63,846 nucleotides of DNA, filler included, from Reclinomonas americana ATCC 50394 (GCA_048213135.1; 7 parts of 4 records of this genome joined end to end with filler, not necessarily neighbours in it), one strand, 5' to 3'; positions 1,888-62,600 are shown, counted from the first letter of the whole stretch. A program made the numbers and translations. Notes: generated from the letters alone by a model not told the origin.

Positions 1888-2758
1888 ATGGCGAGCGGCA
1901 GCAGTGGTGGCGGCGATGTGGCGTTGACCAGCTTGAGCATTCCGCAGCTGCATCACTTGAAGCAGGTGTGTACGCGCGTGGAGACAGTGTTTGAGCATAC
2001 TCTTTTCCTTTCCATCTCTCTCTCTGTGTGTGTGCGCACACGCGTGCGTCGTGTCTCTTGCGCACACGCTTGCGTCACGCACACCATCACAATCAGCACG
2101 CACTTGCATGCACGTGCGTGTGCGTGTGTGAGCGAGCGTGGACATGTCACTCATCCTTGTGCTCTCTCTCTGTGTGAAGAACATGGAGCAAGCGCTGCAG
2201 CACATGGAGACGTCGTACGAGAGCTTGATTCAGGTCAAGCAGACCTTCACAGCCTCGCGTAATGTGGTTCGCGAGCTGGCGCGACAGGATGCTGGTGAGA
2301 AAGAAAGAGAGAGAGACAAGTCGTGCTTTGTGTTGTGTGTGTGTGTTGAGGCGCTTTGGTGCACAGATGCACCGTGCATGATCCCGTTGACACAGTCGCT
2401 GATGGTCACTGGCAAGCTGGCCTCCAAGGACAAGGTCATTCTCGACATTGGCACCGGCTTTTACGTGGAAAGAGTTGCGCGCACTTGTTTCACATTCTCG
2501 CGTGTGCATTCTTCTCTCAGTGACACCGCCGCGCAGAATACCGACAAGGCGTGCGAGTACTTGGAGCGGAAAGCCACCATGGTGGACGAGAAGATCCGCG
2601 AACTGGGCACGCAGTTGGAGCAGACGATGCAGAAGCATCGCATTCTTGCCGAGCACATGCAGCAAAAGTTTGCCTCGGATCCAACGGCGGCCGCGCAATT
2701 GCAGGCGCTCTCTGGTGGTGGTGGCGGTGGCGGTGGTCCCTCATCAGGACCCTCGTAG
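1888..2758 (+). CDS. PFDN5: Prefoldin alpha subunit 5
   Basis: Spliced product MASGSS..LTSLSIPQLHHLKQ|NMEQ..PCMIPLTQSLMVTGKLASKDKVILDIGTGFYVER|NTDKACEYLERK carries the alpha-prefoldin hairpin motif (PLT.S..V.G.L....V.DIGTG.YVE). Three introns. Confidence 0.9.
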
Positions 2759-2831
2759 TCGCGCCTCCGTTTCCAGCGAGTTGGCTGGAGACTTGCTGTG
2801 TTGTTGTTGAGTGTCGATGAAAGCGTGGCGG

Positions 2832-4559
2832 TCACTTGTCGTCACCAAAGAGTCCGAGATCACGCGCCGTCACGCGCGGTGGGCACATGCCGTTGCCGTC
2901 CACACACAGCAGCTCACAGACAACGTTGGTGGCGTGACGCAACACTCCCTGGACGACCACCGAGGGTTCCACGACATCGCCATCGGCGGCGGTGTCGAGC
3001 GAGACACTGTTGCGGGCCAGGGTCTGGGGGATGCACGTCAGCGCCGATGCGTAGGCCTCGCAGGCGGGCGCCTCTGGCCGGTCACCGTGCGCCGCCACCC
3101 ACTCGAGCAGCGCTCGCGACAGCGCCGTGTACGTGGCCCCGGCTCCCGGCACCACGTACGGATGTCGCTGCGTGGCCTCGCAGGCACACAAGGCGTCCCA
3201 CACACATCGCTGCGTCTCCTCGCACAACGACTCGGTGGGGGCGCGCACCACCATGGTGCACAGCGGTCGTCCGGCCGACGACTCGATCAGCACGCCCTCC
3301 TGACCGGCGGCCGTCCACTGTCGCAGCGACTGGACGTGGCCGAGCACGCCGTCGGCCTCTGCTGCGAGCAGCGAGACATCCGACACCACACGGCAGCCGC
3401 ACAGCTGCGCCACACTGTCGGCAAACTCAAAGCCCGCGTTGCCGATGCACACGACGCCACGCTCCGCAAAGTACCTGCCCGCAAGAGCCGTGAACGAGAG
3501 ACACACACAGACGAGAGCATCATCCGCCACGCAACTGCTCCGCCACGTGGTGAATCAGCGAGTGGTTGACCACGACACGAGCACCCGTGGCCACCATGCG
3601 CTCACACAGCATGCGCATGGCCTGTCGTTCGGCCTCGCTGACCGCCACCGCCGCCTGATCGTCGTCGGCCGCCACCGCTGCCGCCGCTCCAGTCTCCGGA
3701 TGCAGTCGGTCGAGGTGCAAACGTGACACCAGCACCGGCACATTGGCGACTGCCTGCGGTCCGCCGAGCCCAATCGAGCGCTCCGACAGCACCACGCAGC
3801 GACGCAGCACCTCGGTCTCCGTCACACTACCGCCAGTGGCCAGCACAAAGCGCACATCGCGTCGCACATGCGGCAGCGTGCACATCACCGCCTGCGCGCA
3901 CACGCGCGACAAGTGCTCCCGGTGCGGATTGGAGCTGAGCGAGGTGGCGGCCACGGCCACCGCCCACGAGCCATCATCATCGCCGCCGCCCTCCATCGCG
4001 CGCACTGCCGTCTGCAACTGGCGTCGCACTCGTCGCACACACCACTCGCACGACTGCCGAAAGGCCTGCACGATTGCCGATCGCGACATGCGCAGCGACT
4101 GCACCAGCAGCGATCCACTGCGCAGCAACTCGGCGCTCAACAGTGCCACCGACGTCGTCCCATCACCCACTGTGCGATCCTGCTCCTCACTGGCCTTGAC
4201 TACTTGCAGCGCTGCCCACATGCATGGAGGTGGGGAGGTGAGGAAGACTGTGAGGAGGAGCACTCACATGTACCTGCCGGATGTTGCAGATCCAGACGCC
4301 GCATGACAGTCGCACCATCGTTGGTGGTAAACACATGATCCCGCGCGTCGACAATGACCACGTCCATGCCAGACGGACCTGCACGCCACACAGAGAGCAA
4401 TCAATGATCATCCTTGCTTGTCCAGTCTTCACATTCGCTCACTGACTGACCGAGTGTGGGTCGCACAATGTCGGCCAGTGCACCGACGGCCTGCGCATTG
4501 CTGCGGAGCGCCTCCTCCGCCGACTGCGTCTGTCGCCAGGCGGTCTGCGGTCGCTGCAT
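2832..4559 (-). CDS. Divergent group II chaperonin, CCT-beta (TCP-1 beta)-like paralog
   Basis: Motifs TLGPSGMD, TNDGAT, QHPA, VGDGTTSV, WDALC and VVPGAG. Apical segment VNHSLIHHVAEQ|YFAERG resembles CCT2 INRQLIYNYPEQLF. Three introns, including 3475-3535. Confidence 0.8.
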
Positions 4560-4642: not shown

Positions 4643-7120
4643 ATGATGGACGGGCAGAGAGCACCGCGGCAGCGAGCGCGGCGGTCGACGCACTTGTCAC
4701 CGGCGGCCACGAAAGGTTTTGCGATCAGCGTGTGTGTAAGAGCCAACTCATGCCTCATTGAGAAAAACAAACACAGCTGCGGAACTGATTCGTCGTGGCG
4801 AGTTTGACGAGGCAGCGCATGTGCTGCGTGAGTCTCTGCAAGGCGGTGAAGTGGGTGGCTTTGGAGCGGAGCGAGCAGAGAGCACACACTTGCTGGGGTG
4901 TGCTTTGTTCGGAAAGGGCCATTGGAGAGAAGCGGCACTTCAGCACGCTCGTGTACTGGCACGCGAACAGCACCTGACAAGAGTCGGACGCGCGCGTGAG
5001 GTAAGAGAGAGTGAGAGTGTGTGACAGGCTGGGTGAGTGAGCACACAAGTGTCTCATCGTTCGGAGGCAGTTGCTGGCCGAGCGTCGTCTGTTTCATGCG
5101 GCTCGGCATGGTCTGGCAGTTGCGCTGTCGCGTTCCGATTGCCCACGCGATCTGACTGATGCTGCCAAGCTGCACCGCGAGTGCGTGCGATTGCGGTGCG
5201 TGCAGCTGGACGTGTGAGCTCTGCGTGTCAGTCAGTCAGCAATGCTCACCTTGCGTTTGCGTACTCAGCACTCGTGAATTGGGATCCGAGTCGCCCGAGA
5301 CGCTCTCGTCGCTGCACAACCTGGCGTGCGTTCTGTGCCGCCTGTCGCAGTACGAGGAGTCGGAGGGCCTGTTCCGGCAGTGTGCCGAGGGACGCGCACG
5401 AGTGTTGCCGCCCGGCGATGCGACAACGCTGCAGTCGTTGGCCAATCACGGCCATGTGCTGCGCCTGCTGGAGCGCCTGGCCGAGTCCAGCGAGGTGCTT
5501 GAGAACTGCGCACAGATGCAGGCCACGTGGTTGGGTGTCGATCACCCGGACAGGTTATCGACGCTGCATTCGTGGGGGCTCACACTGGAGGCCATTGGTG
5601 ATCATGTGCTGGAGAGCGCCGAAGACGTGCTGGAGGAGTGCTGGCGATTGCGCACCACGAAACTCGGCACCTCTCACCCCGACACGTCGAGCACACTGAC
5701 CGCGCTCCAGCGCGTGCGCACCGCCATTGCCGGCCTCAGCACCACTCTGAGATTAGCCCCGGCTCCGTATGAAGGTTTGATTTATCAAGTGTGATGGGTG
5801 GGACTTGCATCACTGACGCGTCGGTGCAGCTGCCACACCCACCAGCGCATTGTTGAGCTCCACGACGGGCAGTCAGGGACTGTTGCTGACTGCCGAGGAC
5901 GGGGAAGACGACGAGAGTGACTCGTCGCCCGAGTTGCGGGGATTAGAGAGACCGACTCCCACCGACGATGAGTTGTTCCTGGACGGTGAGTGGTTGGAAG
6001 AAGGGGAAGGAAGTGAGGCGTACTCTTGAGCTCATTGATCGTTCTCCAGCGTTTTCACCAGACACTGGCATGGTTGCGAAACAACAAGCCGTGCCTGTCA
6101 TGTCGCCGCTGTCATCATGTTCGTGCAGTTGCTGCTGTCACTTCCCCCGTCTCCAGTTAGTGACACACACGCGTGCAGGTGGACAACTGCCTGTCTCTGT
6201 CTGGAGTGAGCACGACGACCTGAATGCAAGCTCAGGCGATCCCTTGGTGCTGGTGGACCTCGATTCCGACGACAGCGTGGATGCGGTGGGCGTAAAGTGT
6301 GTGTCGCCCACATCGTCGTCGTCGTCGTTCGATTTCGACGACACGTACGAGGACGCACAGCCGACAGCCGATTTTGACAACTACATTGTGGTCAGCGGTG
6401 GCGGCGGTGGCGGCATCGTGCTAGTGACGGACAAGGACGGCGACGATGAGGGCAAGAGACCTGCCGAGTCACCTGTCAAGTCTGCCACACTGGACACGGT
6501 GGTGGCCGACGACTCGGTCTCGTGCGCCAAGTGCGTTGACACTTGTGACGACGAAAAGGCTCGAGGTGCGTGTGTCGACGCCATTCGGCGCTGTGAATGC
6601 GCGCCACTGACTCACCACGTCGACATACAGAATTGCGAAACCGGTTTTCGCCGTCGACCGGTGAGTTGTCTCATCTCAGAGAGTACATTGGTGTTCATCC
6701 AAGCCCACGTCTCATTCTCAACAATTTTGGTGCAGACATTACTGCGGTGCTGGACTTTGTGGGCACACAGTTCCAGTGGCCGGCGGCAACCCGCCAGAAT
6801 ATCGAGACAATTCTCCGAGATCAGGTGCGTGCTGCAGCAGGGCAAGTTACCCCTGCATGCGTGCTCTATCGCTAACAAAAGAGAAAACACGCACACACTA
6901 CAGGGCTGCTTCTGCGTTCTCGGCTTGTGGATGCTGCGAATGTTTCGTCCGCCATCAACATTGTCGCTGTTCGAACACTTGCTCATTCTCTTTCTCTCTC
7001 CCGCCTTGCAGCGATCTCGCCAACAAGGACCTCAGCGCGAAACTCGGGCTCACACTTGGCACCTCACGAGCACTGGAGTGGTTCCTCAACGAGCTGACAT
7101 TCGCCGGATTGCTGCGATGA
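4643..7120 (+). CDS. Kinesin-light-chain-type TPR protein with acidic linker and possible C-terminal SAM-like helical domain
   Basis: Repeats LGSESPETLSSLHNLACVL, LPPGDATTLQSLANHGHVL, LGVDHPDRLSTLHSWGLTL and LGTSHPDTSSTL. Phase-consistent exons continue to ..DLSAKLGLTLGTSRALEWFLNEL..* at 7120. Confidence 0.7.
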
Positions 7121-7193
7121 ATGCTCTCAGAGAGACAATGTACGAAATGAGTCACAAAGCCGTCGCAGTCTTCACCCTCGCAAGGAAGCAGCC

Positions 7194-7562
7194 ATGTTTC
7201 GCAGCTTCTTCTTCAAGCCCAAGAAGCTGTTGCGATGCTCACAGTGCCTTCACACGCACTCACTCAAACACTCACTCACACTCTCTCGCACACAGGAAGC
7301 AAAGTCTGCGCACTGCACACACTCGTCTCCGCCTGCTCACCAACAAGAAGCTTAATGCCGTCAAGGTGCGTGGTCTCTCTTGCACACATACACACATACA
7401 CAATCACTCACTCTCACACGCACACAGGTTTCGCGACGCGGTGTCGCACAGGTGCGTGTGCTCCTCATTCACAACTTGCTCTCTCTCTCCTTCTCACACA
7501 CACACGCTCTTCTCCACAGCTTCTCTCTCAGAAGAAGTTTGACTCGGCACGCATTCGAGTTA
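7194..7562 (+). CDS. IST1: IST1 (ESCRT-III-like regulator of Vps4), 5' part; truncated at contig linker
   Basis: Not visible as one ORF. Spliced MFRSFFFKPKKL|KQSLRTAHTRLRLLTNKKLNAVK|VSRRGVAQ|LLSQKKFDSARIRV matches the IST1 N-terminus (FK..L...L.....RL.LL..KK......R..IA..L......ARIRV). Confidence 0.85.
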
Positions 7563-35396: not shown

Positions 35397-37272
<1,876 letters not shown>

Positions 37273-39462: not shown

Positions 39463-42073
39463 TCAAGTGCGCGGGAGAGCCACCCAGCGGTACTCGAAGG
39501 GCGCCAGTTCGGCTGTCAGCGCGGCGCTCTCGCGGATGGAGATTGGTGGGCTGGAGGTGGGGAGCAGATCGGCGAGGTGCACGCCGGCTTCCACGATCAG
39601 CGGGTGTTCGGCAGACACGGACGAGTGCAGCGAGGACAACTGGATCGACGACAGGAAAGATATGAGTGGTGCGGTCGCAGAGGGTGGTTGAAGAGGTAAT
39701 GTACCTCAATGGACACGGTTTGGGTGGCGTCGGTCAGGTTGGACAGCACCAGCACGGCGTCGTCGTCGGTGGAGCGGACGCACACCAGCACGGCTTCGTT
39801 GCTGCAGTAGTGTCGTGCGTCAGAAGAGGTTACACGCGAATGGGCAGAGACAGCACGCAACTCGGCGCTCGGCCACGCGCACTGCCCACGGGCGAACGCC
39901 TTGTGCTGCTTGCGCACGGTGATGAGCTTGCGTATGGCGTGCAGAATGCTGTCCGGATCCGCTTCGGCGGCTGCCACGGACACACTGCGTGCGCAACACA
40001 GAGGAGGGTGAGATGCCGTGTTCTGCGGCAGTGGTGTGGGACTGACTCACCGGCTTGCACCAAACTGCGGACTGGCCACCACCTGGCAGTACAGCTTGTC
40101 GGCGGGGGCGTCGGAAAAACCTGCATTTGCTTTTTCGCCGTCCCTGCGTTGCGCGGTGAGCGAGACAACAGCTGTGTGTGTGAGCGGACAGCAGGATCCC
40201 ACAGTACCATTGCATCGGTGTGCGCACACCATGACGGTCCTCCAGCCAGATGTTGTCGCCCATGCCGATTTCATCGCCGTAGTAGATGATCGGTGATCCG
40301 GGCAGAGAAAACAGCTGCCGATTCGGGTCACAACACGAGACGAAGAGAGCAGGATGGTGCAGCAGCCACGTACCAGTTCGTGAGCGAGCTTGATCTTGCG
40401 AGCATCGCCGTCGAGCTAAACGGTGAGAGAGTGCTGGTCAGTGCGCAGGGCGAAGGGGGAGGAGGAGGAGGACTGCACAATTCTCACCAGCGGCGCGAGG
40501 CGACGGCGAATGCCCTTGTGCAGCTTCATGCGCGGCTCCGGTGCGTACTGCTGCCACATCCACTCGCGCTCCTCGTCGGTGACCATGCCGGCCAGTGCCA
40601 GTTCATCCTACACGCCGTGTCAGCAGATCTTGACCACACACGCACACGCACGAAGAGAAACAAGAACGCAACATGATTGCGCAAAAACGTGCACAGCGAG
40701 CAGCCGGCGGGAAGCGGAGGAGTGCGCTTGACAATGGACACCAAGTCGTGGCCGACGCCCTTCTTCAGCGCCATGTAGAAGCGTGGCATGAGGGGGAAGT
40801 TGAAGCACATCTGGAACTCGTCGCTCTCGCCAAAGTACGGAATCAGTTCCTCGGGCCACATGTTGGCCTCCGAGAGCAGCAGGCGATCGCCGCCAAACTC
40901 CTCCTCCACCACGCGACGCATCTTCTTGATGAACGCATGCGTCTCCGGCAAGTTCTCGCACAGCGTGCCTTCGCGCTGGTACAGGTACTGCGGGAAACGG
41001 AGGTGAGGAAGGACAAGGGGGGAGAAAGGATGAGAGGATGAAGGACGTGGGGAGGAGGAGGGACAGAGGAGGTGAGCGAGAGAGAGTGCAGGAGAGGAAA
41101 CAATCACGCAACGGGAACGGCGTCGACACGGAAGCCGTCGACGCCCTTGCTGAGCCAGAAGCGCATCACGTCCAGCATCTCCTGGTGCACCTTGGGATTG
41201 TCGTAGCTGTGACATCGCAGAGTGAGGGACAGTCAGGGAGCACACGAAGGGGACGGAAAAGCGGGAGCGCACTTGAGATCCGGCTGCGTGTGGAAGAATC
41301 GATGCCAGTAGTACTGACCGCGCACTTCATCAAACGACTGCGAACAGCATGAGCACTCAAGCAACAACACACTCGCTAGCACCGCCTCCACCACACACGC
41401 ACCCAGTTGGTGGAGTACGTGTCGCAAAAGATCACAGGCACACCGGCGTAGCGATCGGGCGTGTCGGACCACACAAAGTAGTCGCCGTACGGGCCCGTGG
41501 GATCTGCACGCCAGCCAGTCAGTCTCGCTATGATGTGTCACACGCACACGACAGCCGTCGGTACTGACCGGTGCGCGAGGCCTGGAACCACGGATGCTGA
41601 TCGGAGCAGTGGTTCGGAATGAAATCCATGATCAGACGCATGCCGCGTGCATGCACTGTGGATGCATGCATGCACAGATGAGGAGAAGAGAAGAGAGGAG
41701 AGCTCCCAGTGCCTGCTGAGGCACACACACTCACCAGCCTCGACCAGAGCGATCAAGTCATCGACAGTGCCATACGCAGGCAACACCTGTGTGTAATCCG
41801 CCACATCGTAGCCGTCGTCGTACAATGGCGACGGGTACGTCGGCAGCAGCCAGATGACATCCACGCCCAGCGACTCAATGTGATCCAGCTTGGCCTCCAA
41901 GCCACGCTGCGTCCATGCATGCATGCATGTCATGCAAGAGGAAGGAGAGACATGCACCTGCGCGCGCGCACACGAACCAGATCGCCGTGCCCATCGCCGT
42001 TGGAGTCGTAGAACGCACGTACGTAGCACTCGTACAGCACAATGCCGCGAGTGTACCACGCAGGATCGCTCAT
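39463..42073 (-). CDS. treS: Trehalose synthase / maltose alpha-D-glucosyltransferase (GH13, TreS type) with 13 introns
   Basis: [113 protein letters not shown]. The catalytic D/E/D residues are intact. Confidence 0.95.
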
Positions 42074-42893: not shown

Positions 42894-45800
42894 TTACAAC
42901 GCAAACGCCATGGCCACAACAGCACCAATCGCGATCAACACACTCCACATAGACGAGTTCGCCGCGAAACCGGCACCACCGGTCGTCGACACACGCAGGT
43001 TGGCCGACGGAATCGACTGGCCAAACGAGTTGATGGCGCGCACATTCACCACGTACGGCGTGCCAGGCTGCAGGTTGGCCTGGACAAACGTGTAGTTGGC
43101 ACGCGCCGACGACAATGACGACAACGACGACGACGACACTGACGGCGTCGAGTCGGCAGCGTTCTTGTAGCCAACAAGCACATTGCCACCGTTCTCCGGG
43201 AACGTCTGAATCATGTACGTCGTAATCGGTGCCAGACCAGTGTATACAGGCGTTGAGAAGTTGATGCTCATCGATGTGTACGTGGTCGGCCCTTGAGTCG
43301 GAGCCGACGGCGCCGCAGGCTGAGCCGTCTGCGACAGCGAACCGTAAGTCGGCGTGCCAATGTTGTTGTCCACTGCGCCATGTGAGCCCTGCCCGAGGCC
43401 CACTGCATTGCCGCCAATCAGCACCATGCGGTAGCGCGACGACGGCTTGATGGTATGGAACAGCTGCACGCAAGTGCCTGCCACCGCCGGATTGGTGCCG
43501 CTGCCGAGCACAGCAGTGTTCAGGCCCAGGCCATCAGCCGCAGCCGGATTGCCAGTCGACGCCAGGAAGCGGGTCGTCCACTGCCAGTACACCAGGTAGT
43601 AGGTGGCGGCCGCAGTCGTGCCCGAGCCCACCGCAGTCCACGACACGCGGTACTCGTTGGCGGCGTAGAAGTCCAGCGACGGGGTGCCAGCAGCCGGCAC
43701 AATGCCAGTCGTGGTCACCGGCGACGCCTGGATGTAGATCGACAGCGAGTTGTTGCCCGTGCCAATCGAGTTGGTCGCGTTCAGGAAGAAGCGGTAGAAG
43801 TTGCCGTTCACCACCGTCACAGACGCCGTGGTGTCGGTGGCACCCAACGCCGCCGCCGGGTTCGACGCAGTCGTGCCCGACGCACCAGTCAGCGACTGGC
43901 CAGAGATGGCAGTCGACGCGCCAGTGGCAGTCGTCCACGAGAACGCAATCGCCGTGCCAGTGTTGCTGGTCACCGCAAAGTTGGTCTGGTCGTTCGGCAC
44001 CTGGCCCGTCAGCACGTTGTTGTTGAGGCCGTTGCCGAGGATGCCGTCGCCGAAGGTGGCCTGGGTGGTCGACGTGCCAATGCCGTTGATGCCGCGCACA
44101 TCGACAAAGTAGTTGGTGGCGTCGGTGAGGCCGCGGATCACAGCCTGCATCACCGAGGTGATGTTCTGCGTCAGCGTGCTGGCCGTAGCCGCGCGCCACG
44201 ACACCTGCCACTGGTTCACAAAGCCCTGGCCACCAGTCTCCTGCGGCTGTCCCCAGCTGAGCCAGATCGAGGTCGAACGCTTGAGCAGAAGGTTCGACGA
44301 CAGCGACGTGATGCCGCTCGGGCGCTGCGGCGACGTGGCCGTGGTGATGGTGATGACCGACGCAGACGAGGCAGTCTGGTAGCCGTTAAACGACGCCACG
44401 CCAATGCGGTACTTGGTGTTGGAGGTGAGGCCGTTCACCAGCAGCGACGAGGTGGTCGAGCCGAACGAGCCAGTGAACTGAGTCACAAAGTTGTCCGGCA
44501 CGAAGGCAGTCGAGGTGACGTTCGTCAGGTTCTGCACCAGCAGCTGCACACCGACAAAGTTCGCGAAGCCGTCCGAGGTGGTCAGCGAGTACTGCGTGCC
44601 GACCACAGTCGACGGAGTCGACAGCGTGAAGGTGACGTAGCCGGAGCCAGTCGTATCGGTGGTCAGAGCCGGCAGCGGGTACGGGCGCACAATCGAGTTG
44701 GCAATCTGCGACAGAGTGCCCGACTGAGCACCGTTCTGCGTCGAGGTCACGCCAGAGTCCGAGCGGGTGTTGGTGGCCTGCACGGCGTAGGTGTACGACT
44801 TGCCCGGAATGGTCGGGAACGAGAAGTTGGTGGTCAGCGTCGTCCACGTGTACGTGCGGGTGCAGTTGTTGGTGTTCTGCGTCACAATGTAGCCGTTGAT
44901 CGACGTGCCGCCAATGCCAATCGGCGACGCCCACGAGATGCTGGTGAGAGTGTCGTGATAATAGTTGCCAGCAAAGCCCACACCACCAGCCAAGCCGCCT
45001 TGTGAGTTCGCCACACCAGCAGTTAGTGTTGGTGCCGCCGGGGTAATCGGTGCGTCATCTGTGGTAGAAAGAAGGGACGCGGTGGTGGATTAGATACTGA
45101 TATTCAAAACAAGCAGATGGTTCCCTGTCTATCTCCCCCTATCCCCTCTCCTCTCCTCTTTCTTTCCCCTTTCCTTTCCCCCTTTCACGCAACTGGTGTT
45201 GTGAGTGGTCTGAGTCAGCGGGCCAGCAGCCGTGGCCGAGTTGGTCGAGCCGGCAGTGGCGTACACCTGGTACGTGTACGACGTGTTGGCAGTCAGCGTC
45301 GTGTCGGCAGTGTAAGCGGCGGTCAGCGCCCAGCCAGCCGGCAGGGTCACCGTGCCCACAGACACCGGGGTCGCGCTGCCCTGGCCGCGGAAGATCGTGA
45401 ACACCGTCACCGCGTCCGAGCCAAAGTTCTGCGGAATCGTCCACTGCAGGGAGATGTTGGTGAGGCCGTACTGCGTCACCGCCAGGTTGGTCGGCGGGTT
45501 CGGCACGACACCGGTGGCAGCCGGAGTGGTGAAGTTGATGGCAGTGCTGAACACGCACGTCACCGGGTTCGCGACCGTGCCAGCCGGGTTGAAGGGCGAG
45601 GTCGGGAAGGCAATCGAGAACTGGTTGCTGGCGCAGATCTGCAGGTTGACCGAGGTGCCAGCCGGCAGGCCAGTCACGTCAATGTAGTAGGTCGACAGGT
45701 TGTTGTTCCACGACGCCGCAGCGCCAGTGCCGTTGGTGGACGGGATGGAGCTGGTGTCAATGTTGACGGCAGAGCCGGCAGTGGCCGCAGTCACCGACGA

Positions 45801-47282: not shown

Positions 47283-47864
47283 GTGACGACGGTACGGTAC
47301 GGTACGGTAGGTAGGTAGGTACGGTACGTCGTACGTCGACGACGGTCGGCGGACGGACGGACGGACGGACGGTACGGTANNNNNNNNNNNNNNNNNNNNN
47401 NNNNNNNNNNNNNNNNNNNNNNNNNNNNNNNNNNNNNNNNNNNNNNNNNNNNNNNNNNNNNNNNNNNNNNNNNNNNNNNNNNNNNNNNNNNNNNNNNNNN
47501 NNNNNNNNNNNNNNNNNNNNNNNNNNNNNNNNNNNNNNNNNNNNNNNNNNNNNNNNNNNNNNNNNNNNNNNNNNNNNNNNNNNNNNNNNNNNNNNNNNNN
47601 NNNNNNNNNNNNNNNNNNNNNNNNNNNNNNNNNNNNNNNNNNNNNNNNNNNNNNNNNNNNNNNNNNNNNNNNNNNNNNNNNNNNNNNNNNNNNNNNNNNN
47701 NNNNNNNNNNNNNNNNNNNNNNNNNNNNNNNNNNNNNNNNNNNNNNNNNNNNNNNNNNNNNNNNNNNNNNNNNNNNNNNNNNNNNNNNNNNNNNNNNNNN
47801 NNNNNNNNNNNNNNNNNNNNNNNNNNNNNCTCGTCGTCGTCGTCGTACGTCGTACGTCGTAGTA

Positions 47865-47918
<54 letters not shown>

Positions 47919-50900
47919 AGAATGGTGCGCAACTGGTGGCGGTGTAGAAGTTGGTGCCACCTGCAGTCGGCGACGCGGCAGCGGAAGAGTTGGTGCCACC
48001 GTTGTTCGTGACGGAGAAGGCGACTTGCGGCCAGTACTGGCGGCCGGGGAGGAGGCCGGAGAGGGTGACCTGCCAGGCATCGAGATGACCAGTGGCGGGC
48101 TGGTTGCTGTTGGCCGTGATGGTGAGGCCCGAGGCGACAGCGACACCGCGCACGTTGGCAGTGCCAGTGGCAGTGAAGCCGTAGACGCTGGCAGCAGACG
48201 AGGCGTTGACATTGGCCTGTTTGGCAACGTACTGCGCACCGCCGGCGGTCATGTTGATGACAAACGTCAGCGAGGTGTCGGTGATGTCGATGACGGTTAT
48301 AGAGTTGGCGGCCGTCAGGATGCCGGCATTGTTGCCGGCGCCGGAGCCAGTGACCGCTGAACCACTGGTCATTGTCACAGTGCCCGTCCAGGGAATACCA
48401 GTAGTAAAGGTTAATGGGAGGACCAGGCCGATGTTGCTGTCGCCGATCGCGTAACCGAAGCCAGCACCACTCAGCACAACAGTCACAACGCCTGTTGCGC
48501 TCACTGTCAGGTCGCCCGAGGCAGCGTGGCCGGAGCCGCCATTGAGGCTTACACTGCTCACGAAGCTCGTGACGCCATATCCGGATCCGTTTGCGCCCGC
48601 TGGTATGTTAACGGATGCTGCAGCTCCTCCTGTAACGGTGGCAATTGTGACAATAGCCTGGTTCCCGATTGCCGGGGTCGGAAATGGGGTGTTGCCGTAG
48701 AGAATGGTGCACGGACCAGTAACGCGGACTGTGTCACCGGCGTGATAACCGGCACCAGCCTGTCCCGCGGTGATCCAAACAGTAGAGATGTAGCCAGCGG
48801 CGTCTACCACAACTTCAAGTTTCAGGTTTGTTCCAGTGCCGGTGGCGGCAGTAGTAGCGCACCAACTGTAGAACTTGCCGTAAAGAGTGCCTGTCGCGTT
48901 GTTCTGCCTCAAAATAACAATACCGCCTGCAGCCGCGTCGGACGTGTTGGCGTTGGCGGTGCAGCAGTACAGTGACACAGGAGTGCCGGAGTTGACCAGG
49001 GTGTAGTTAACGCCAAACGTGGTGTTCGCAGCAAGAGTAGTGCCACGGATGGCCACGATAAACTTGGAAGCGGACAGAGCTGTCGCCGTGGTGGTGCCGT
49101 CCAAAAAAGCAAAGTTAGCGGCAGCCACAGCCGCACCGTTGCTCGCGAAAGTGGCGCCGGCGACAAAGGAAATGGCGTTCATACCGCCGACAGCAGTGCC
49201 AGTGGCGGCAGTCGCCACCACGCCACGCTGAGTCGGCGAGCCGACATTCATCACCACAAAGTTGTTGCCGACGGTAACAAAGGCGGTAGCGTCGGTGACG
49301 GCAGTGCCAGAGCGGTTGAACCAGACGGCGTTGGTGGGAGCAGTCTTGGCAAGAGAAGTAATGAACGCGACTGCGCCGTTGGCTGTTCCACTGGAGGCGT
49401 TCTTCACCACAAGGTTCACAACGCCATCAGCAGTGGCATTGAACGTCATAGTGCCAGCGAGGTCGCTCGGGCCCATCGTCAGAGTGCCGACAGTGGCATT
49501 AGCAACGCCGTTGGCGCCGAAAGTGTACGGAGTCGCACCAAAGCCACCGTTGCCGATGACCGTGGCAGCAGTCGTGTTGGCCAGGCAGTTGATGGTGGTG
49601 CCACCAGTCACCGACCAGCAAGCCACCAGAGTCGGGGCAGCGATAGTCGGGTTGGCGGCGGCGCTGAGGGTGAGAGTCTGCTGCGAAGCAGTGTCGAGAG
49701 CGGCAGTGCCGTCGCCGTTGGCGTTCTGAGCGAGCACACGGACGCGGTACGTGGTGATCGCGGCACCGTTCTGAGTCGTCGGCAGCGCCGAGATGAGGAT
49801 GTGGCCGCCAGACACACGGCCAAAGGCTGTGTCAGTCACTGGCGTGCCAGTGGGCGTCGAGAAGGCATTGTAAAGCGCACCGCCGTTGCTCAATGCCGCA
49901 GTCTCCACATTCCAGCCAGAGATGACACCGCCAGTCACCTGAGGCGAAGTCCAGGAGATGAGGCCGCCATTCGAGGCAGGAGCCACGATGGTCGGCAAAC
50001 CGACCTTGCCCGGAGACTGCTTGCCGTCCTGGGTGGTCACCGTGGCGGTCTGCGAGCAGAGGAGAGGCAGGTGGGGTGAGCAAGCTGCTGCACACAGTGC
50101 ACACAAAATCACACAAAGACAAAAGACGCAACAGTGCTCCACAGTCCAAAGCCCCACTGGCCCACAGCGCGTACGCGCACCACGTAGCCAGTGCTCGGCT
50201 GCAGCAGGCCGGACGACGCGGTGGCACCAGTGCCCGACACCACGCACGACTGCTGCGAGAACGGCACGCTGTACGTGTTGGCGAACGGTGCGATCGCCGC
50301 ATTGGCGTTGTTGCCGTTGGTGGTCTCAGTGTAGAAGGTCACCGGCGTCCAGGCAGTCAGCGAGCTGCCCGTCGAGCTGCGGATCTGCACCTGGAAGAAC
50401 GGAGTCTGCAGCTGGTTGAAGTTGGCGACGTTGCCGGAGCCCGTGGCGCCAGTCTGGCCAAGCTTGATCGGCGGGTAGAACGACAGCACAAACGAGGTGG
50501 CCGACGTGTAACTGATGGCCAGGTTGGTCGGCTGGCGCGGAGTGCCAGCGAGCGGGACTGTGACAGTCTGCGACGACGTTCGCGCGCCCTCACCGTACGC
50601 GTTGACCACGTAGGCCTGTGGGTGGTGGGAAAGAGATGCGATGAGTGGGGGCATGGGAGGGGGGAAAGAGGGGAGAGACAAAGGACGCAACGGCGATGGT
50701 GTACTGCACGCCCTCCTGGATGTTCTGGTCAAAGTAGCGCAGAATCATGCCGTAGCAGCCGGCGCCGCCAGAGGAAGGGCCGCCGTTGGCCGCAATGGCG
50801 TTGACCGACGAGCACTGTTGGTGGAGGAGAGAGGAGAGGGTGAGAAGAGGAAAGGGAGAGGGAAGGAGGAGAGAATGCACACGCAACAGTGTACTTGGTG

Positions 50901-51584: not shown

Positions 51585-54500
51585 CAACTCCAAGGCTCCC
51601 AACTTGCGTGTACTGCGCAAACGCAGCATTGCTCCATCGCACACACAGCACATATGATCCCGCCGCCACACTGCTCGCATTCACCGCAAGCACCATGCTC
51701 GTCGGCAGCGTCGACGACGACACACTGATCACGGCAGTCGTCGCCGCCGCCGCACAACTCGTCGAAATCACAAACGCCGCCGTGTCGCCGCTCACACTCA
51801 CCAACGAGCTTCCCGTCAACGCGATCGTCTGGCTCGGTGTCGTCACCGTGAACACGGCTCGAGGTACCTGAGTTGACCACGTGGCTGTGCGTGCACACAA
51901 AGAGTGTCAATCAATCAGTCACTCACTCACTTGCCCCACCAAGCTCCTTCCCAAAATACTCACCAACATTCAGAGTCGACGGAGTCGCACTCACTGTTGT
52001 ATATGCACTCGTCGCCAGCCACCGCACACACACCGTGTACGCCCCGGCTGCAGTCGCGCTGGCGTCAATCGTCAGTGTGATCAGAGTGTCCACCGTCCGC
52101 ACGCTCGTCATCGTCACCACACTCGACGGCGTGCCAGTGCACGTTCCCGACGACAGCACAAACGCCAGCGGATCGGTGCTCACGTCTGGCATCGCAGTGC
52201 CGCTGATTTGGATCGTTCGCCCAGACAGTGCGGCCATCGCAGGTGGATTGACACCACTAGCCGACGCCACCACCAGCTGTGTGGCGGCCACAAGCGAATA
52301 GTTGCCAGCACCGCCAAACTGGATGCACACTGCACAGTACCCGGCACTCACGGTCGCCGCCGTCGCACCCTGGGCCGTCACGACCAACACATTCGCTCCA
52401 GCCGTGCTCACCAGAGACTGGTTCACCATCACCGGGAAGCTGCCGCCGCTCGCCGTGCACGCCATCGATCCCACCTCCAGTCGCACATTGTCCGACATGC
52501 TCAGCGCACGCCCAGAGACAGAGAACACCGCACCCGCACCACTGATGTTGATCGCACTTGGCGCGTATCCAGTTGTCGAAGACACTGCATGAAGGCGAAC
52601 ATATCATCAGACAGCTGACTCGCTGAGAGCTCTCTCGTTCACATATGCGTACTCACCAACAGTGAGCGTGCCACCGACTTTTACAAACGTGCTCGTTCCG
52701 TTGAACTTGCCGCACACCGAGTATGGTCTGCGCATGCACACGTGTCAGAACAAGTTTCACCGCTGCCAAAGAGTCATGGAGAGCAGCAAAGACACACCCG
52801 CTGCTCATGATTGTGTTGGCGGCAGCCGTGCTCGCCACCACAGTTCGCGCGCCAGCAACACCGCCGATACTCGCCGCAGTCACCAACGGAATCGTTCCAC
52901 CAGTACCCGGACACACTGCTCCCGATTGCAGACTGAACACGTCTGTCGTCGCCAATGCCAGTCCAGTGATCGTCACCTGCGCACCAGCAAACTGCGCGAG
53001 AATCGACGACGGCGAGAACGACGTGCCGCTTCCCACTGAATTGCAAAACACGCACACACAGAAATTCATGAGAGGGGAATAAGGTACGCGCGCGCAGAGC
53101 CACCGCCGCACTCACCCACACTCAGTTGAGTCGCGCCCACAGTCGTGAATGTTGCAGTGCCAGTGAACTGGATGCACACCGCATACAGTCCCACCGTAGT
53201 CAACGTCGACACAGCTGCCGGCTGCACCGCTAGCGTGCGAGCTCCCGCTGCGCCAGCGTACGTTGGCGATGACAACCCAATGCCGAGGCCACCCGACGCA
53301 CACGTCGTCACGCCGAGTTGCAGCTGCACAGCATCGGTGGCCAGCAACCCAGGTCCGGTCACTGTCACTTGCTGTGATGTTGACTCGGCAAGAATCGTCG
53401 CAGGTGTGAAGCCAGTCGTCGACGGCACTGTGTAAAGAATGCACAGTCACAATCACACAATGTTTTGCGTGCCGACACACAGCTCACACCAAAATAACAT
53501 ACCAGCAGCCAGCTGCGTGACGCCGACACGGACAAACGATCCTCCACCACCATACTGGATGCTGCATATGAACGAAAGAGAGAGAGAGAGATTGGCATGA
53601 AAACGCTTCGTACTCCAATAGACACAATGCACTCACCACACAGCATACACATCCGTCGGTGCAGTTGTCACAGCCGGAACCGATGCAGTCAGCGTCCACG
53701 CTCCTGCGGATCCCGTCCGCGAAGGCGAAGACGACACCAGGTTGCCGCCACCAGAGCACACTGTTCCCGATTGGATTCGAATCTTGTCGCTGGTGCGCAA
53801 CCCCAGACCCGATATCGTGATCACTTGTCCAATAGTCTCCGCCAGGATCGACGCCGGCAGGAACGATGTCGCGTTCGCCACTGCACCGCGCTCACAAGTC
53901 AATCGATTGCTTCCACAGCATTCTCTCACACACTCACTCACTCACCTCCTGTGAGTTGTGACGCAGATACTTGCACCCACGTGCCCGTGTTGGAGACGTA
54001 CTCCACACACACAGCAAACGTGTCGGGACTCGCTGACGGCAACGCGAGACCTGTGCCGCCCACGGTTGCCACAATTTCCGTCAGAATCACCGAGTTGAGT
54101 GTCGCCGCAATCGTCTGACCCGATCCAGTACAATTGCTACCCGGCATGAACATCACTTGATTGATCGACAGCGTCGAGAGGCCGGCGCCAGTGATCGTCA
54201 CTTTCTCCGTCGGCACCTCGGCCATGATTGATGATGGACTGAAGGCCGACACCGTTGCTGCACCGCGCCGAAACACACTGTCAGCTCAGACACTCATGCG
54301 TGGCGAAAACAAGGGATCGATAGTGAAGAACGAAACGGACGAGTAGCTGGGTCGAGCCGACCTTGAAGTACGAGCCAGTCGAGGAGAAGCGGACACACAC
54401 GCTGTACGCTCCACCCACCGTCACACCGCTGCCGCCAACGTTCTGTTTGTAGACTGTTGATGTGCCGCTATTTGCACCAGACAGAGTCACGGAACCCATC

Positions 54501-56406: not shown

Positions 56407-56710
56407 TGAGTTCATGGCCGTCAAGGGCTCCAACATCTACAACGCCTTCGCGAAGCGCACTCTGCAGTACCACCACGTGATCCTGCGCAAGGAGGGTCGC
56501 AGCGCGGCGGTCGCGAGCGCTGGCTCGGCGTCCTCGTCGTCGCCGGTGTCGTCCAGGTCACCACCGTCGCCCACGGCCGCTGGCAACGCCGGTACCTTTG
56601 TGGCGCCGCCCGTGTCCGACACCAATCGTTGCGCGCTCTTGTGTCTACTCTCGTGCACAGTCGAGTGCCGTCGCTCATTCGTGTGTTATGCAGCCACCAC
56701 GGTCGAGTAA
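56407..56710 (+). CDS. 3' fragment of a gene, possibly a class I SAM methyltransferase C-terminus
   Basis: EFMAVKGSNIYNAF....QYHHVILRK followed by a Ser/Pro tail. Family resemblance is weak and from recall only. Confidence 0.3.
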
Positions 56711-58094: not shown

Positions 58095-58129
<35 letters not shown>

Positions 58130-58229
58130 NNNNNNNNNNNNNNNNNNNNNNNNNNNNNNNNNNNNNNNNNNNNTTAATTAATTAANNNNNNNNNNNNNNN
58201 NNNNNNNNNNNNNNNNNNNNNNNNNNNNN

Positions 58230-58273
<44 letters not shown>

Positions 58274-59245
58274 CTCGCAAAGAAAGAAGGGATGAGAGGA
58301 GTAGGATGCGTTGAAAGCGGAGAAGAGAGATAATGGTGGAAAGCTTGGCCTGTTTCATCTCTTCTTTCATCTCTCTCCCTCTTAACTCGCAAAGATAGAA
58401 GAGAGAGAAGAGGAGCAGGTTGTGTTCACTGTGTCTTCCTCTGTTTCTCACTCTCGCTTTACACTCACGCAGAGCCACAGAAGCGGAGAAGAGAGAGAAA
58501 GATGGAAAGCGTGGCCTGTTGATTCATCTCTTCTTTCATCTCTCTCCCTCTTCACTCGCAAAGATGGAAGAGAAGAAGAGGAGAAGGACACCTTCACTAC
58601 TTCTTCCTCTCCGCCTTCTCTCCCTCTCTCTCCTTCTCTCTTCACTCACAAACATGGATTCGAGACAACAGAGAGAAGAGTACGTTTGTGCTTCATGTCT
58701 TCTTCCTCCCCTTTCTTCTTCTCACCTCTTTCTCTCTCTTCTCTCTTCTCTCCCTTCTCTTCCCTCTTCTCTTCTCATCTCCCTCACATGTCACTCAGAG
58801 TCCCAGTGCACTTCGACCCGACTTTCTTTCACGCAACAGTCTTCTTCTGCCCAACTCGCCGCGGGGCACCACGCAAAAGCGCGCCAAAACCACCCTTGCC
58901 ACCGCACAACGCTCCATCGCGCCACACAAACTCCAAAAACACCGTCACAACAACAACCATCTGCGCCGACATGGCCACCGCGCGCTTTCTCTCCTCGTGC
59001 ATCACACGTTCCCAGGTAAGAGGCTGCGACGCTTGCTGCTTCCCATTGGTGACAACTGATGCAGTGGTGGACAACACTGTGCGACCGGCCCAGCGCCACG
59101 CCATGTGCTGCGCGGGAATGCCACACGCGCGCTCCACGCGCTGACACACGTGTTGCAACGATGCAGCCTGTTGCTCATTGTCGAACGCAAGGCATAGCGT
59201 GCGTCGTCCTTGCGACACGGGCAATCCGCTCACGATGATCTGCAT
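56870..59245 (-). CDS. SDE2: SDE2 (ubiquitin-fold-activated splicing / replication-stress factor)
   Basis: N-terminal UBL ending LCGGKGGFGALLRG..KKT|TNFDSCRDLEGRRLR, an acidic linker, and SAP-like GAEALKNELTRRNLK|CGGTPLERAARL. Intron 57892-58837 spans a contig linker in frame. Confidence 0.93.
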
Positions 59246-59604
59246 GACGATGATTGAAATGTCCTGAGAGTGTCATGCAAGCCAAGGTCAAAGAATCCCC
59301 GTCGAATCCCCTTCGTCCACAACTGCTATTGCGTTCGTCGTAAGCTGGTAGAGAGGGATACGCGTGCATATCGGCGACAATAGCAGGGAGAACACTTCAG
59401 CTGCAGCATGGATCGCGAAGTTGCGAAATCGAAGTTGCTGGCCGTCGCCGAACGTTCACTGCGGCTGGTGCTTTCCCGCTGCACATCCTTGTGCATCTTA
59501 CGCACTTTTGCAATTACACAAAGTACAGAAGAGTTTCCCGAGTGCGAGAACTTCATCACGCCCTGCACCTTTGTTCGAAGTCACTTCTTCCTCCCACTCA
59601 CGGC

Positions 59605-62600
59605 ATGAGCGACGCATACGCGCGCTTTGTCGACACGGAGCCGAGCGAGTATCCTCGCGCTGGGCCTCTGCTTGTGCCGCAACCCGCTGTGCCTCTTGCT
59701 GTGGCGGCGGGCGAGGACGACAGGCGGAGTGCATCGTCGGCGGAGAGCTCTCTCTCGCGTCGTGCGTTGTGGATGCGCGAAAAGTGGAGACAGCGTCTGC
59801 CGCCGCCGCCGCCCTCTGTCTTGTGTAGATGCTGCAAGGGGAAGAGACCACGCAGCAGCAGCAGCNNNNNNNNNNNNNNNNNNNNNNNNNNNNNNNNNNN
59901 NNNNNNNNNTTAATTAATTAANNNNNNNNNNNNNNNNNNNNNNNNNNNNNNNNNNNNNNNNNNNNACCACCAGCTTGTGAGCGACCGTCGTGCGCGCTCC
60001 ATCTCACGGTGTGAGCGTTGCGGGGGCGCAGTGCGCAAGGCGACGTGACGGCCGACGTTACAATCACGGTGGCTGTCTCTGGCTTCTATCGGATGATCTA
60101 CACCATGGATGGTCTTGTGGTCAACGGTCACCAGTTTCAGATTGTCAACAACCAGCCGCAACAGTCGCAGGTCGGAGTTGGTGTTCATGCTGCGTTCACA
60201 CACGGGTGAGTAAGTGCGGTGACTCTCACCTGTTGGGATACCGCAGGTGTGCGCCGCGGTGAACATTATCTCTTCGGTGCCGTCACGAGTCAGCATCGAC
60301 GCACAGTTTCCCGAACCACTGGCTGTGCAGGTGCGGGCGGGCTCTGGCGACGTTGTGTAATGTACGTGCGTGTGGAACTCACCAGCGGCACTGCAGGTGG
60401 TGAATTCGCAAGGCGCACCGGTTTCCGGCATCGGAGTCGCTCCATTGTTGTGGGATGCTTTTCAGGGTTCTATTGGCATCAATTTTCAGATTCCATGGTC
60501 GCAGTTCCTGAACCCCAGCTTTAACGGATTGCCTGTCAATGCCACTGGCATCGCCATGCTGACGAATCTCAGTATCGTGAACGGTTGGTGTGACCCGTGG
60601 AGAGTATTCTGCCGATACAAACAGTCGCTGACATTCTCTTTCCACGGAGCACAGCGTACTCGAATACCGTCGGCTTGCTGGTTGCTGCCGCCCTCCAGGG
60701 CAGTTCAGATACACAATGCTTGTCTGACATGACTGTCATGCCACTGATCGGCATTGACGACGCTGGTGTGTGTGGGAGCATTCGTTGTTCGTCTCCGTGC
60801 GCAAAAGTCACTCATCGTTCCCTCCATATAGTCACCTCCTTCTCCGTGGCGACGCCACCTGTTTGTGGGCAAGCTGGCGACTTGCTTTCTGTGCAGCCCA
60901 AGATCTGTTTACAAGGCCCCAAGGGTCCACTCGCCGGACGACAAGTGCAAGTCGCCATCTCGACGGGGCAAGTGGGCAGTCTAAGTAACGTCCCAAGCGA
61001 GTGGCTGGATTACCTTTTCTACAGCAGCACGGTGGGTACAGAGACCTTGCTTCTCTTGTTGTCGTCGTCGCTTTGTGTCGTTGACGCCGCTCTGGTGCAC
61101 CGCAGGCCGCCATCTGGGGCAGTCACTTTTTACTCGGTTATTCCACAACCACGCCAACCATTGTGCGTCTCGTCGCTTTTCCGTTCCCTGCTGTGATTCA
61201 ATTGTGGCTCATTCGACTCTTGTATGTGTCCAGTTATATGGCTCCTACAACTTTTCGTTTGTGCCAGTCTTCACCTCTCCACAACTGACAGATTCAACTG
61301 GTGCGAAGCTGTTCACTGCACGCTCCAAACATGCTGTGCTGACAGAATGTTGCAGGGTGCACAACGATGCAGCTGGGCGTGCGCAACGGTTTCTACCAGG
61401 ACTTGCCCATGCTCGTTGCGTGTGATGCTTGGAAGAATGTGTCCTCGTAGCGGCAGTTCACGCACTGAAAGGTGGCTCCTTTGCGCACAGTCCGTGTCAG
61501 GCGGTCGCATCGGCGGCTTCTTCACCATTCCCGAATGCCCCAACCCAGGTACTGATGCCCGTCACCCGCACCGCCCTTTGTAGGTCTCTCAGCTCACATT
61601 CCGCTGTCGCAGTAACGAGTCTCGTGTACGTGGCACAGCCGGGCGCCGGTGGTCCCAACGCCGAAGTCGATGTCGGCGTTGTGTTACCGAATCAGCCCGT
61701 GGTGCGGGCAGTGATTGATCCCACACTCGGTCGTGCGGACAATATACCGTTGCGCAAACGAATTGCGTCTCTTCGTCTTCACACGCTCACTATGCGTCCT
61801 TTTCCTCCACAGTATATTTGTGCTGTACAACAATTCGACATTCACCGCCGAAACCTACGCCATGACGGACACCACTGGCACTGCTACATTTTCAGGTGTG
61901 GTGTTAAAATGTGCACTTGTTGCCGACAGGCCTGTCTCATGCTACAATATGCAGAGATCGAGTTTGCAGGCGGTCTCACCGGGAACTACAGCCTACAATT
62001 CTTGATACCGTACGCCAACAACTTGATCTTGTCGCCGCTGTCTCAGCCGGTGCAAGTGTACAATCCACTGCAACAGCTGGCCGTGTCGTGGACTGCGCCC
62101 GAGTTCATCAGCTCTGGCTTCCCACTGCCATCGGCATTCCAGCCCTCCGTTCGCCTTGTGGTTCGATGCACACCGCTCCCTTGCCGCGATCCACCTCTGG
62201 TGCACTCATCATCTCCGCTCTGTTGTTTGCCGCACAGTTCGACAACACGCCGACTCCGTTCCCAGCAGTGACGGTGACAGCTTCCATTGTAACTCCGGTC
62301 GGCATCAAGTCCCCGGCGACGCTCTTCAACAATGTGGTCAATACGAACACCATGGGCGTGGCGCAGTTCACCGATCTCACAATCAATGGTCCGCCAGGTC
62401 GCTACCAGCTGCAGTTCACTGCCTACGGCATCAACAGGCGAGTGCTCGCCGATAATCGTCTCGTGTTTATTGCCACTGCGCTGACTGACATTCGTCTTGC
62501 GCGCAGCGTGCCGAGTCCGACAGTAACAGTGGCGCTGGAACCAAATTCACTGACGGTTGTGAGCCAGCCAACGTCGCTTGTCATCGGCCAGCCGACAAGT

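Follow-up and report, generated by a model that had tools for sequence, protein, structure and literature searches.

How is a 5' splice site recognised when its signal lies one nucleotide deeper in the intron than usual? This question is raised by a 63,846-nucleotide stretch of DNA from Reclinomonas americana ATCC 50394 (GCA_048213135.1; seven parts of four records joined end to end with filler), which is called the window below. The window is intron-rich eukaryotic DNA; its G+C content is about 58%, its introns are short, and it contains scaffold gaps. The U1 5' recognition sequence is regarded as one nearly universal sequence, and offset registers as rare exceptions. The original prediction had listed 24 intron starts of the form H/GTTNCG, where the slash marks the exon-intron border and H is any base but G, with G at +6. 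It described them as a major, rule-governed class that occurs only after a non-G exon end, is the canonical G/GTGCGT slid by one base and implies an alternative U1/U6 pairing register, variant snRNAs or a dedicated factor.

All 24 sites read as had been described, with a non-G base at −1, C at +5 and G at +6. Twenty are GTTGCG, and there is one each of GTTTCG, GTTCCG, GTTACG and a GTTGCGA-type donor. GTTGCG occurs 78 times on both strands of the window against 64 expected, and GTTGCGT 34 times against 13.5. As intron starts, 22 of the 24 are supported: seven by protein homology, four by domain motifs and the reading frame, one by the frame alone and ten by a gene finder. Of the other two, the site at 47933 enters an assembly gap, and that at 58837, which may merely be the end of an open reading frame, has no visible acceptor. 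Twelve candidate members were added to the list (Table 1).

Homology-placed introns were obtained with a spliced protein-to-genome aligner that worked with GT..AG borders, BLOSUM62 and a flat intron penalty, without a donor motif. The trehalose synthase gene, TreS, aligned to the bacterial-type homologue P0001, has 13 solid introns and a doubtful 14th at the unconserved C-terminus. Three of the 13 start with GTTGCGT (41112, 40672 and 39861), and tblastn with three homologues gave the gap-free junctions DAVP/YL, FLRNH/DELA and AWPSA(D)/NEAV. The other ten TreS donors are ctg/GTTCGT, ctg/GTGAGT, ccg/GTCAGT, tgg/GTGCGT, caa/GTGCGC, ctg/GTGAGA, ctg/GTACGT, atg/GTACTG, ccg/GTGAGT and gag/GTACAT, nine of them after G. 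The MYST acetyltransferase gene, aligned to P0039, has nine introns, with GTTGCG starts at 35612, 35782 and 35920. Its six other donors all follow G, and one of them, GTGCAA, is without G+5. The counts originally given for the other donors after G in the two genes (six of six in MYST, nine of ten in TreS) were thus reproduced by alignments blind to the motif. The acceptor of the intron at 35782 is ambiguous; the P0039 alignment places it 9 nt further on than the GTGCAG chosen by the finder. The site at 35476 lies upstream of the part aligned to P0039 and is needed by the frame, since read-through hits a TGA. The top MYST match in the representative library, P0032 (E 1e-85, three matched stretches), has its acetyltransferase core duplicated internally, which made it useless as a junction reference; an error of assembly or of gene prediction is the probable cause.

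Other genes gave further junctions. In a CCT-like chaperonin gene, the donor at 3535 joins VAEQ/YFAERG, which stands without a gap opposite YPEQLFGAAG of CCT2 in two PDB searches. The Pfam match of a prefoldin gene ends exactly at nt 2473, next to the site at 2474, and the 63-nt in-frame insert that begins there is, we presume, foreign to the prefoldin family. A cyclase exon ends in ..FILK and resumes with GVSEPEE across the site at 15396. The site at 7229 opens the first intron near a gene start, MFRSFFKPKKL / KQSLRTAHTRLRLLTNKKLNAVK (7189-7370, + strand), in a gene that runs into the gap at 7563; we take this start to resemble the N-terminus of IST1-type ESCRT-III regulators. At 6942 the reading frame is the sole support.

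For the rest of the window we used a self-trained gene finder built on a three-periodic Markov coding score and an acceptor matrix. It recovered 8 of the 24 listed sites without a donor model and 8 of 24 with a single donor matrix. These two passes were not used for counts because they chose in-frame GTGTGT-like sites that are contradicted by homology. A two-component mixture was then fitted, unsupervised, to positions +3 to +9 of class-blind predictions, and one component, of 20%, read T-G-C-G-T. In the final pass this mixture served as the donor score over intron positions +3 to +9 only, so that −1 was left free. The pass called 117 introns: 27 GTTNCG (1 after G), 74 GTNNG (54 after G) and 16 others (Fisher P = 1.2e-10). 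Fifteen of the 24 listed sites were found again in this pass, which also yielded the 12 candidates. Among the 27 called class members, 21 read GTTGCGT, 22 would break the frame if left unspliced, and 11 lack any other in-frame GT within 30 nt. From the finder calls, with the TreS and MYST introns exchanged for the homology-placed ones and five hand-checked sites added, we compiled a curated set of 124 introns. It holds 34 GTTNCG (27%), 75 GTNNG and 15 other donors, and the GTTNCG members are spread over at least 15 different genes. The ordinary short-intron donors are led by GTGAGT (13), GTGTGT (9) and GTGCGT (7).

Could the class have been produced by a reader and a finder that misplace junctions on a word enriched by chance? 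Homology supports part of the set only, two of the 24 sites (47933 and 58837) stayed unsupported, and several of the new candidates have weak acceptors. However, the motif-blind alignments put GTTGCG at the start of 6 of the 22 homology-placed introns of TreS and MYST (binomial P = 1e-9), and the chaperonin, prefoldin and cyclase junctions are concordant. Exon-intron borders hold 24 of the 78 occurrences of GTTGCG, but none of the 32 of GTTGAG and none of the 56 of GTTGTG, that is 0 of 88 for these two words. We regard such an artefact as very unlikely. As read from genomic sequence, GTTNCG donors form a real and abundant class that is coupled to the base at −1, and this confirms the observation on which the prediction was built.

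The coupling to −1 is strong. In the curated set G stands at −1 of 1 of 34 GTTNCG donors and of 58 of 75 GTNNG donors (Fisher P = 3e-14); the homology-placed subset alone gives 0 of 6 against 12 of 13 (P = 2.6e-4). The statement that the class is found "only after non-G" was nevertheless too strong, because the intron at 31823, CAG/GTTGCGTGG, follows G. At 41272 (− strand) homology places a donor of the ordinary type after a non-G base, caa/GTGCGCTCC; a non-G at −1 alone therefore does not force the GTTNCG form. The avoidance of G at −1 exceeds base composition (P = 3e-4) and also that of GTTGCG away from predicted borders (11 of 54 after G, P = 0.025). It does not go beyond the scarcity of G at −2 of ordinary donors (7 of 62 against 1 of 34, P = 0.25). 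The non-G preference looks like the slid counterpart of the ordinary low G at −2 and not like a separate rule. Of the "major, rule-governed class", the abundance (34 of 124 introns) and the coupling to −1 held up; a separate rule was not supported.

Is the class, then, the ordinary signal slid by one base? When the ordinary donor matrix, with the GT columns omitted, was laid on the class, it scored 3.51 nats in register +1 and −9.78, −9.45 and −1.05 nats in registers 0, +2 and −1; ordinary donors score 3.66 nats on their own matrix. In the columns free of the class definition only register +1 was positive (+0.18 per column) and the other registers were negative. This free-column signal comes mainly from G+4 and U+7, with a minor share from −1 and +8. 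The preferences of the class equal the ordinary ones moved by one base at G+4, G+6, U+7, G+8 and on the exon side, where C stands at −2 in 41% of the class donors, and they differ at +5. There the class has C in 34 of 34, whereas the ordinary +4 has A, C and T at 0.39, 0.29 and 0.31. Even in the homology-placed subset C+5 is found in 6 of 6, with a probability of 6e-4 under the ordinary +4 frequencies. The class is thus partly the ordinary signal slid by one base. The +1 register claimed for it fits, but the description as a slid G/GTGCGT does not account for the invariant C+5, and the ordinary class is led by GTGAGT. Three finder-called donors, at 12841 (+ strand, GTATCGATG), 15122 (+ strand, GTGTCGGTG) and 55259 (− strand, GTGTCGGGA), have C+5 and G+6 with T+4 and are without T+3. 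They may be another offset form, or else finder errors.

Pairing to U1 was calculated by folding each donor (−4 to +10) with the standard U1 5' 11-mer, as given in PMC4856993, and comparing it to 600 decoy GT sites; the host's own U1 may differ from this 11-mer. Ordinary donors paired at −6.83 kcal/mol, in the canonical register for 70 of 75, with an area under the curve (AUC) of 0.845. For the GTTNCG class the mean was −1.27 kcal/mol and the AUC 0.307; shuffled versions of its donors (−2.56) and the decoys (−2.90) both paired more strongly. With this U1 the class chose register +1 in 11 of 34 cases and the canonical register in 1 of 34, at energies near zero. An A at +5 would have given −3.73 kcal/mol. 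When U1 positions 5 and 6 were varied through all 16 combinations, ordinary donors were fitted best by the standard sequence. Only a G at U1 position 5 puts the class in register +1, in 30 of 34 cases, with −5.2 to −6.8 kcal/mol and an AUC of 0.64-0.66.

These energies bear directly on an explanation that needs no special component, in which a single standard U1 pairs with the donor in a plain shifted register or with one base bulged. In its favour, the logo shows an offset of exactly one base, T+3 would pair with A7 of U1, G+6 with C4 and U+7 with A3, and the shifted register is documented in human cells (PMC4856993). The exon side, with low G at −1 and the frequent C at −2, tracks the ordinary −2 and −3, and because of this a shift is favoured over a bulge. 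However, the pairing lies below shuffles and decoys, register +1 is taken by about a third of the donors only, and the better-pairing A+5 is never seen while C is invariant. Because of the fixed CG and the poor pairing, a plain shift on the standard U1 is probably insufficient, and the alternative register is not supported in this form. We consider such a shift a possible but doubtful explanation.

Where the class is cleaved can be decided at one TreS junction. At 41112, moving the donor and acceptor borders together by one base would keep the frame but turn the TAC of a conserved Tyr into GAC. Cleavage slid by one base (HG/TT..AGN) is ruled out by this Tyr, and it would also turn every CAG/ into CAGN/. 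Of the two anchors that had been proposed for GT..AG cleavage, the TreS P/Y junction does fix the register. The chaperonin EQ/YF junction fixes the frame and not the register, because the next exon starts with G and the same mRNA results either way. Judged by the encoded proteins, the cleavage of the GTTNCG class is GT..AG.

The 3' parts of the introns were then compared. The acceptor YRCAG is common to both classes, with C at −3 in 22 of 25 short class members against 57 of 60 ordinary introns. The median length is 73 nt for the class and 66 nt for ordinary introns, and the composition is similar. In both classes, branch-like motifs (CTCAC, CTCAT or CTGAC, CTSAY-like) are situated 11-42 nt upstream of the 3' end, and among 4- to 6-mers no class-specific 3' word remained after multiple-test correction. 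These features matter for the idea of a separate minor-spliceosome-like system with its own small nuclear RNAs (snRNAs), grown to a quarter of the introns. U12-type introns have the 5' consensus RTATCCTT and a rigid branch site, TCCTTRAY, close to the 3' end. The class resembles U12-type donors in its rigid 5' signal, in its independence of the exon-end G and in coexisting with ordinary introns in the same genes. It differs in its 5' consensus, since members read GTTGCGT (21 of the 27 finder calls), in lacking a rigid branch site near the 3' end and in having acceptor, branch and other 3' features like the ordinary ones. A separate system of this kind is highly improbable. That the same 7-8 nt start recurs in many unrelated genes might also suggest the ends of an introner family, a relic of intron origin and not a splicing signal. 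However, an all-against-all blastn of the 117 predicted introns gave two short matches, neither joining two class members, and there is no common 3' end. Since only these two matches appeared, the GTTNCG introns are not a repeat family, and introners are the explanation to which we give the least credence.

The introns, their coupling to −1, the offset logo, the requirement for CG and the common 3' signals are directly supported; from them we infer what reads the donor. In the explanation that we prefer, and to which we give about even chances, these are real major-type GT-AG introns with a rigid, offset GUUGCGU that has a specific reader, either an altered or second U1-like RNA or else a standard U1 held by protein. 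The ordinary (major-type) spliceosome would remove them. Their 5' signal would be the rigid heptamer GUUGCGU, usually followed by G, one nt deeper in the intron than G/GURNGU(G), and the reader of the ordinary signal, or a near copy of it, would work in register +1. The first G of the intron would then substitute for the last G of the exon, U+3 for U+2, G+6 for G+5 and U+7 for U+6, and cleavage would remain at the first GU. The reader RNA would offer G and C opposite +5 and +6, by an altered U1 5' end or as a second U1-like RNA; alternatively, a protein might hold the standard U1 in the offset register. The narrower proposal, that a second 5' splice-site RNA, either a variant of U1 or some other small RNA with a 5' end complementary to GUUGCGU, serves about a quarter of the introns, is a tentative one that we think rather unlikely.

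Several points weigh against a specific reader of an offset signal. The best single altered U1 reaches an AUC of 0.64-0.66 for the class and fits ordinary donors more poorly, and the energy model ignores pseudouridines and the U1 proteins and uses a standard U1 that may not be that of the host. Since T+3, C+5 and G+6 are fixed by the class definition, the register test is in part circular, and the free-column signal rests mainly on two positions. Seven members are placed by homology, and the others lean on an error-prone self-trained finder, which in its final pass overlooked nine of the 24 listed sites and called MYST 35612 and TreS 39861 wrongly. Because this pass favours C+5, the absence of GTTGAG and GTTGTG from borders depends in part on the model. 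Finally, one window of 64 kb may not represent the genome.

The weak pairing leaves room for a recognition that is independent of U1 pairing, in which a protein or an early engagement of U6 or U5 on UUGCGU would mark the GU upstream. The rigid heptamer, a complementarity to standard U1 below random (AUC 0.307) and a last exon base that contributes nothing are consistent with it. Its likeness to the ordinary logo at an offset of one would, however, be a coincidence, and we know of no candidate factor for the recognition of UUGCGU. We consider this improbable and keep to the offset signal with an RNA or protein-aided reader.

Shifted-register (+1) 5' splice sites in mammals were reportedly described by Roca and Krainer in 2009. 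As in mammalian shifted or bulged donors, cleavage here occurs at GU, the recognised signal lies one base downstream, G is at +6 and not at +5, and the exon-end G is dispensable. Unlike them, the class has a near-invariant sequence, the C+5 that is worst for standard U1 and a predicted pairing below that of random GT sites. Its share also differs. According to Tan et al. 2016 (PMC4856993), all validated non-canonical registers combined make up about 1.5% of 201,541 human donors, and the share quoted for human U12-type introns is about 0.36%; both are far below the 34 of 124 found here. Three other papers (PMC11732430, PMC11842720, PMC10581693) describe two donor classes, distinguished by the strength of the exon side (U5 loop 1) or of the intron side (U6 ACAGA box, LUC7-dependent). 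The window resembles these systems, as described there, in having donors that lean on the exon-end G and donors that lean on the intron, with −1 inversely coupled to the intron side. In the same descriptions, though, those classes keep G+5 and the register, whereas here C+5/G+6 is found in 34 of 34, the signal is displaced by one base and UUGCGU is fixed. A literature search for GTTGCG or GUUGCG donors or a shifted register, whose scope excluded subscription journals and supplements, found no such class described.

Table 1. GTTNCG introns and candidates, genes and spacers of the window. Lower-case letters are the exon end, the slash is the border, and the last letters are the acceptor. Listed, in the original prediction; new, added here; splicing needed, for the frame; no other GT, no other in-frame GT within 30 nt.
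Feature	Position (nt)	Strand	Donor..acceptor	Status	Basis and remarks
Prefoldin intron	2474..2536	+	aga/GTTGCGCGC..GCGCAG	listed	Pfam match end at 2473
CCT-like chaperonin intron	3475..3535	−	gca/GTTGCGTGG..GGGCAG	listed	PDB join EQ/YF; splicing needed, no other GT
Candidate, TPR gene	5119..5268	+	gca/GTTGCGCTG..ACTCAG	new	finder only; splicing needed, no other GT; acceptor weak, 150 nt
Intron	6942..7011	+	aat/GTTTCGTCC..TTGCAG	listed	frame chain only, hand-checked
First intron, putative IST1-like gene	7229..7295	+	gct/GTTGCGATG..ACACAG	listed	frame change gives MFRSFFKPKKL-KQSLRTAHTRLRLLTNKK
Coiled-coil/cyclase gene intron	11928..11995	+	cga/GTTCCGTGG..GTGCAG	listed	finder, even without donor model
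Cyclase-domain intron	15396..15460	+	aaa/GTTACGTGA..CTGCAG	listed	..GSFILK/GVSEPEEVIEV..; rival donor 15401 meets stop
Candidate	19698..19987	−	ggt/GTTGCGTGG..ACGCAG	new	finder only; 290 nt, atypical length
Candidate, XLF-like gene	20121..20186	−	gtc/GTTTCGTTG..GCGCAG	new	finder only; read-through open, other donors exist
Intron	21535..21611	−	cac/GTTGCGTGT..CCGCAG	listed	finder; splicing needed
Intron	21780..21840	−	ggt/GTTGCGTGA..GCGCAG	listed	finder; splicing needed, no other GT
Candidate	24229..24312	−	gga/GTTGCGTAG..GCGTAG	new	finder only; acceptor poor
Candidate	24395..24464	−	cga/GTTGCGTGC..ATGTAG	new	finder only; acceptor poor
Candidate	25750..25822	−	agc/GTTGCGTAG..TTGCAG	new	finder; stop 6 nt into intron, no other GT
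Candidate	27113..27191	−	tcc/GTTGCGTCC..GCACAG	new	finder; splicing needed
Intron	29236..29303	−	gat/GTTGCGTTC..GCGCAG	listed	finder
Candidate	29591..29661	−	tcc/GTTGCGTAA..CTGCAG	new	finder; splicing needed, no other GT
Candidate	31423..31497	−	ttt/GTTGCGTTG..CGGCAG	new	finder only; read-through open
Candidate after G (exception)	31747..31823	−	cag/GTTGCGTGG..TTGCAG	new	finder; 77 nt; frame change f1 to f0 needs it, hand-checked
MYST intron 1	35476..35542	+	gac/GTTGCGCGC..GCGCAG	listed	read-through TGA; frame continues into Tudor-knot exon
MYST intron 2	35612..35683	+	gca/GTTGCGCGC..GTGCAG	listed	spliced alignment to P0039
MYST intron 3	35782..35856	+	cga/GTTGCGTCG..GTGCAG	listed	donor from P0039 alignment
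MYST intron 4	35920..35995	+	cat/GTTGCGTGC..ATGCAG	listed	spliced alignment to P0039
Intron	38355..38422	−	act/GTTGCGTGC..GTGCAG	listed	finder, every pass; no other GT
TreS intron	39802..39861	−	cga/GTTGCGTGC..CTGCAG	listed	spliced alignment to P0001, gap-free
TreS intron	40608..40672	−	cat/GTTGCGTTC..GTGTAG	listed	FLRNH/DELA gap-free against three homologues
TreS intron	40988..41112	−	ccc/GTTGCGTGA..CCGCAG	listed	DAVP/YL gap-free; Tyr TAC opens next exon; fixes register
fn3 gene intron	45059..45193	−	cca/GTTGCGTGA..CCACAG	listed	finder, every pass; splicing needed, no other GT
Donor-like site only	47830..47933	−	cca/GTTGCGCAC	listed	(CT)n, then N gap 47380-47829
fn3 gene intron	50050..50132	−	act/GTTGCGTCT..TCGCAG	listed	finder; stop 21 nt into intron
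fn3 gene intron	50616..50691	−	gcc/GTTGCGTCC..CCACAG	listed	finder, every pass
fn3 gene intron	50815..50887	−	act/GTTGCGTGT..CAACAG	listed	finder, every pass; no other GT
Candidate, TIG gene	54258..54336	−	tcc/GTTTCGTTC..GTGCAG	new	finder, even without donor model; no other GT
Weak candidate	56628..56693	+	atc/GTTGCGCGC..ATGCAG	new	very small, low-scoring predicted gene
Donor-like site only	58826..58837	−	act/GTTGCGTGAAAG	listed	stop 6 nt on, GA-rich after, no acceptor found
Intron	61749..61812	+	acc/GTTGCGCAA..CCACAG	listed	finder; splicing needed
Prefoldin gene	2.1-2.8 kb	+			Pfam
Divergent CCT-like chaperonin	2.8-4.4 kb (2835-4400)	−			Pfam
TPR gene					Pfam
Long coiled-coil and class III cyclase gene	8-15.6 kb	+			Pfam
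XLF gene					Pfam
MYST acetyltransferase	35.4-37.2 kb	+			Pfam
Alpha-amylase-family trehalose synthase, TreS	39.5-42.1 kb (39500-42100)	−			Pfam
fn3 proteins and TIG proteins					Pfam
SDE2					Pfam
Identical 100-nt spacers (six)	7563-7662, 20832-20931, 34567-34666, 56240-56339, 58130-58229, 59866-59965				44 N, 12-nt word, 44 N

The gene map was based on a Pfam scan of 150 stop-free open reading frames of the window. No Rfam match was obtained in the window, snRNA genes included, and no tRNA genes were found in it. Judged by its sequence matches, the chaperonin belongs to the CCT/thermosome family as a divergent member; the best of its PDB matches, with E of only 1e-17 to 1e-19, are divided between CCT beta and an ancestral group II chaperonin. 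Relatives of the gene were not found in two word-based homologue searches, nor were relatives of its exon in the metagenome contigs scanned. The names of the MYST relatives are spread over green algae, Ancoracysta and one stramenopile, and an atlas comparison of the fn3 genes gave generic fn3 clusters only. Runs of (CT)n/(GA)n are much over-represented in the window (CTCTCT 197 observed, 46 expected) and make up several introns and the gap edge 47830-47918. Words of the TTAATTA type recur 24-fold in the window. By their word counts, these words and the 100-nt spacers fit a linker with stops in all frames that joins contigs; a search with the linker TTAATTAATTAA gave no lead.

In a word-based search the nearest relatives of TreS were bacterial or metagenomic (Acetobacteraceae, Pseudomonadota, Deinococcus), with at most 75% identity over the exon that served as query. 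Its 13 spliceosomal introns have donors of both classes. It is a reasonable guess that TreS has a bacterial ancestor and acquired both kinds of intron later. Because both donor classes sit in a gene whose nearest relatives are bacterial, both were possibly gained after a transfer.

For the annotation of such genomes, gene finders with a single donor matrix would mis-splice genes of this kind, as seen with the 8 of 24 sites recovered in the single-matrix pass. If a second recognition RNA did serve the class, intron recognition by U1 and by U11 would be joined by a third kind. A eukaryote in which about a quarter of the introns depend on a rigid offset signal that poorly fits the universal U1 would be a natural experiment. 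It would test what sets the cleavage site when recognition is out of register, whether U1 5' ends can diversify and how donor classes originate.

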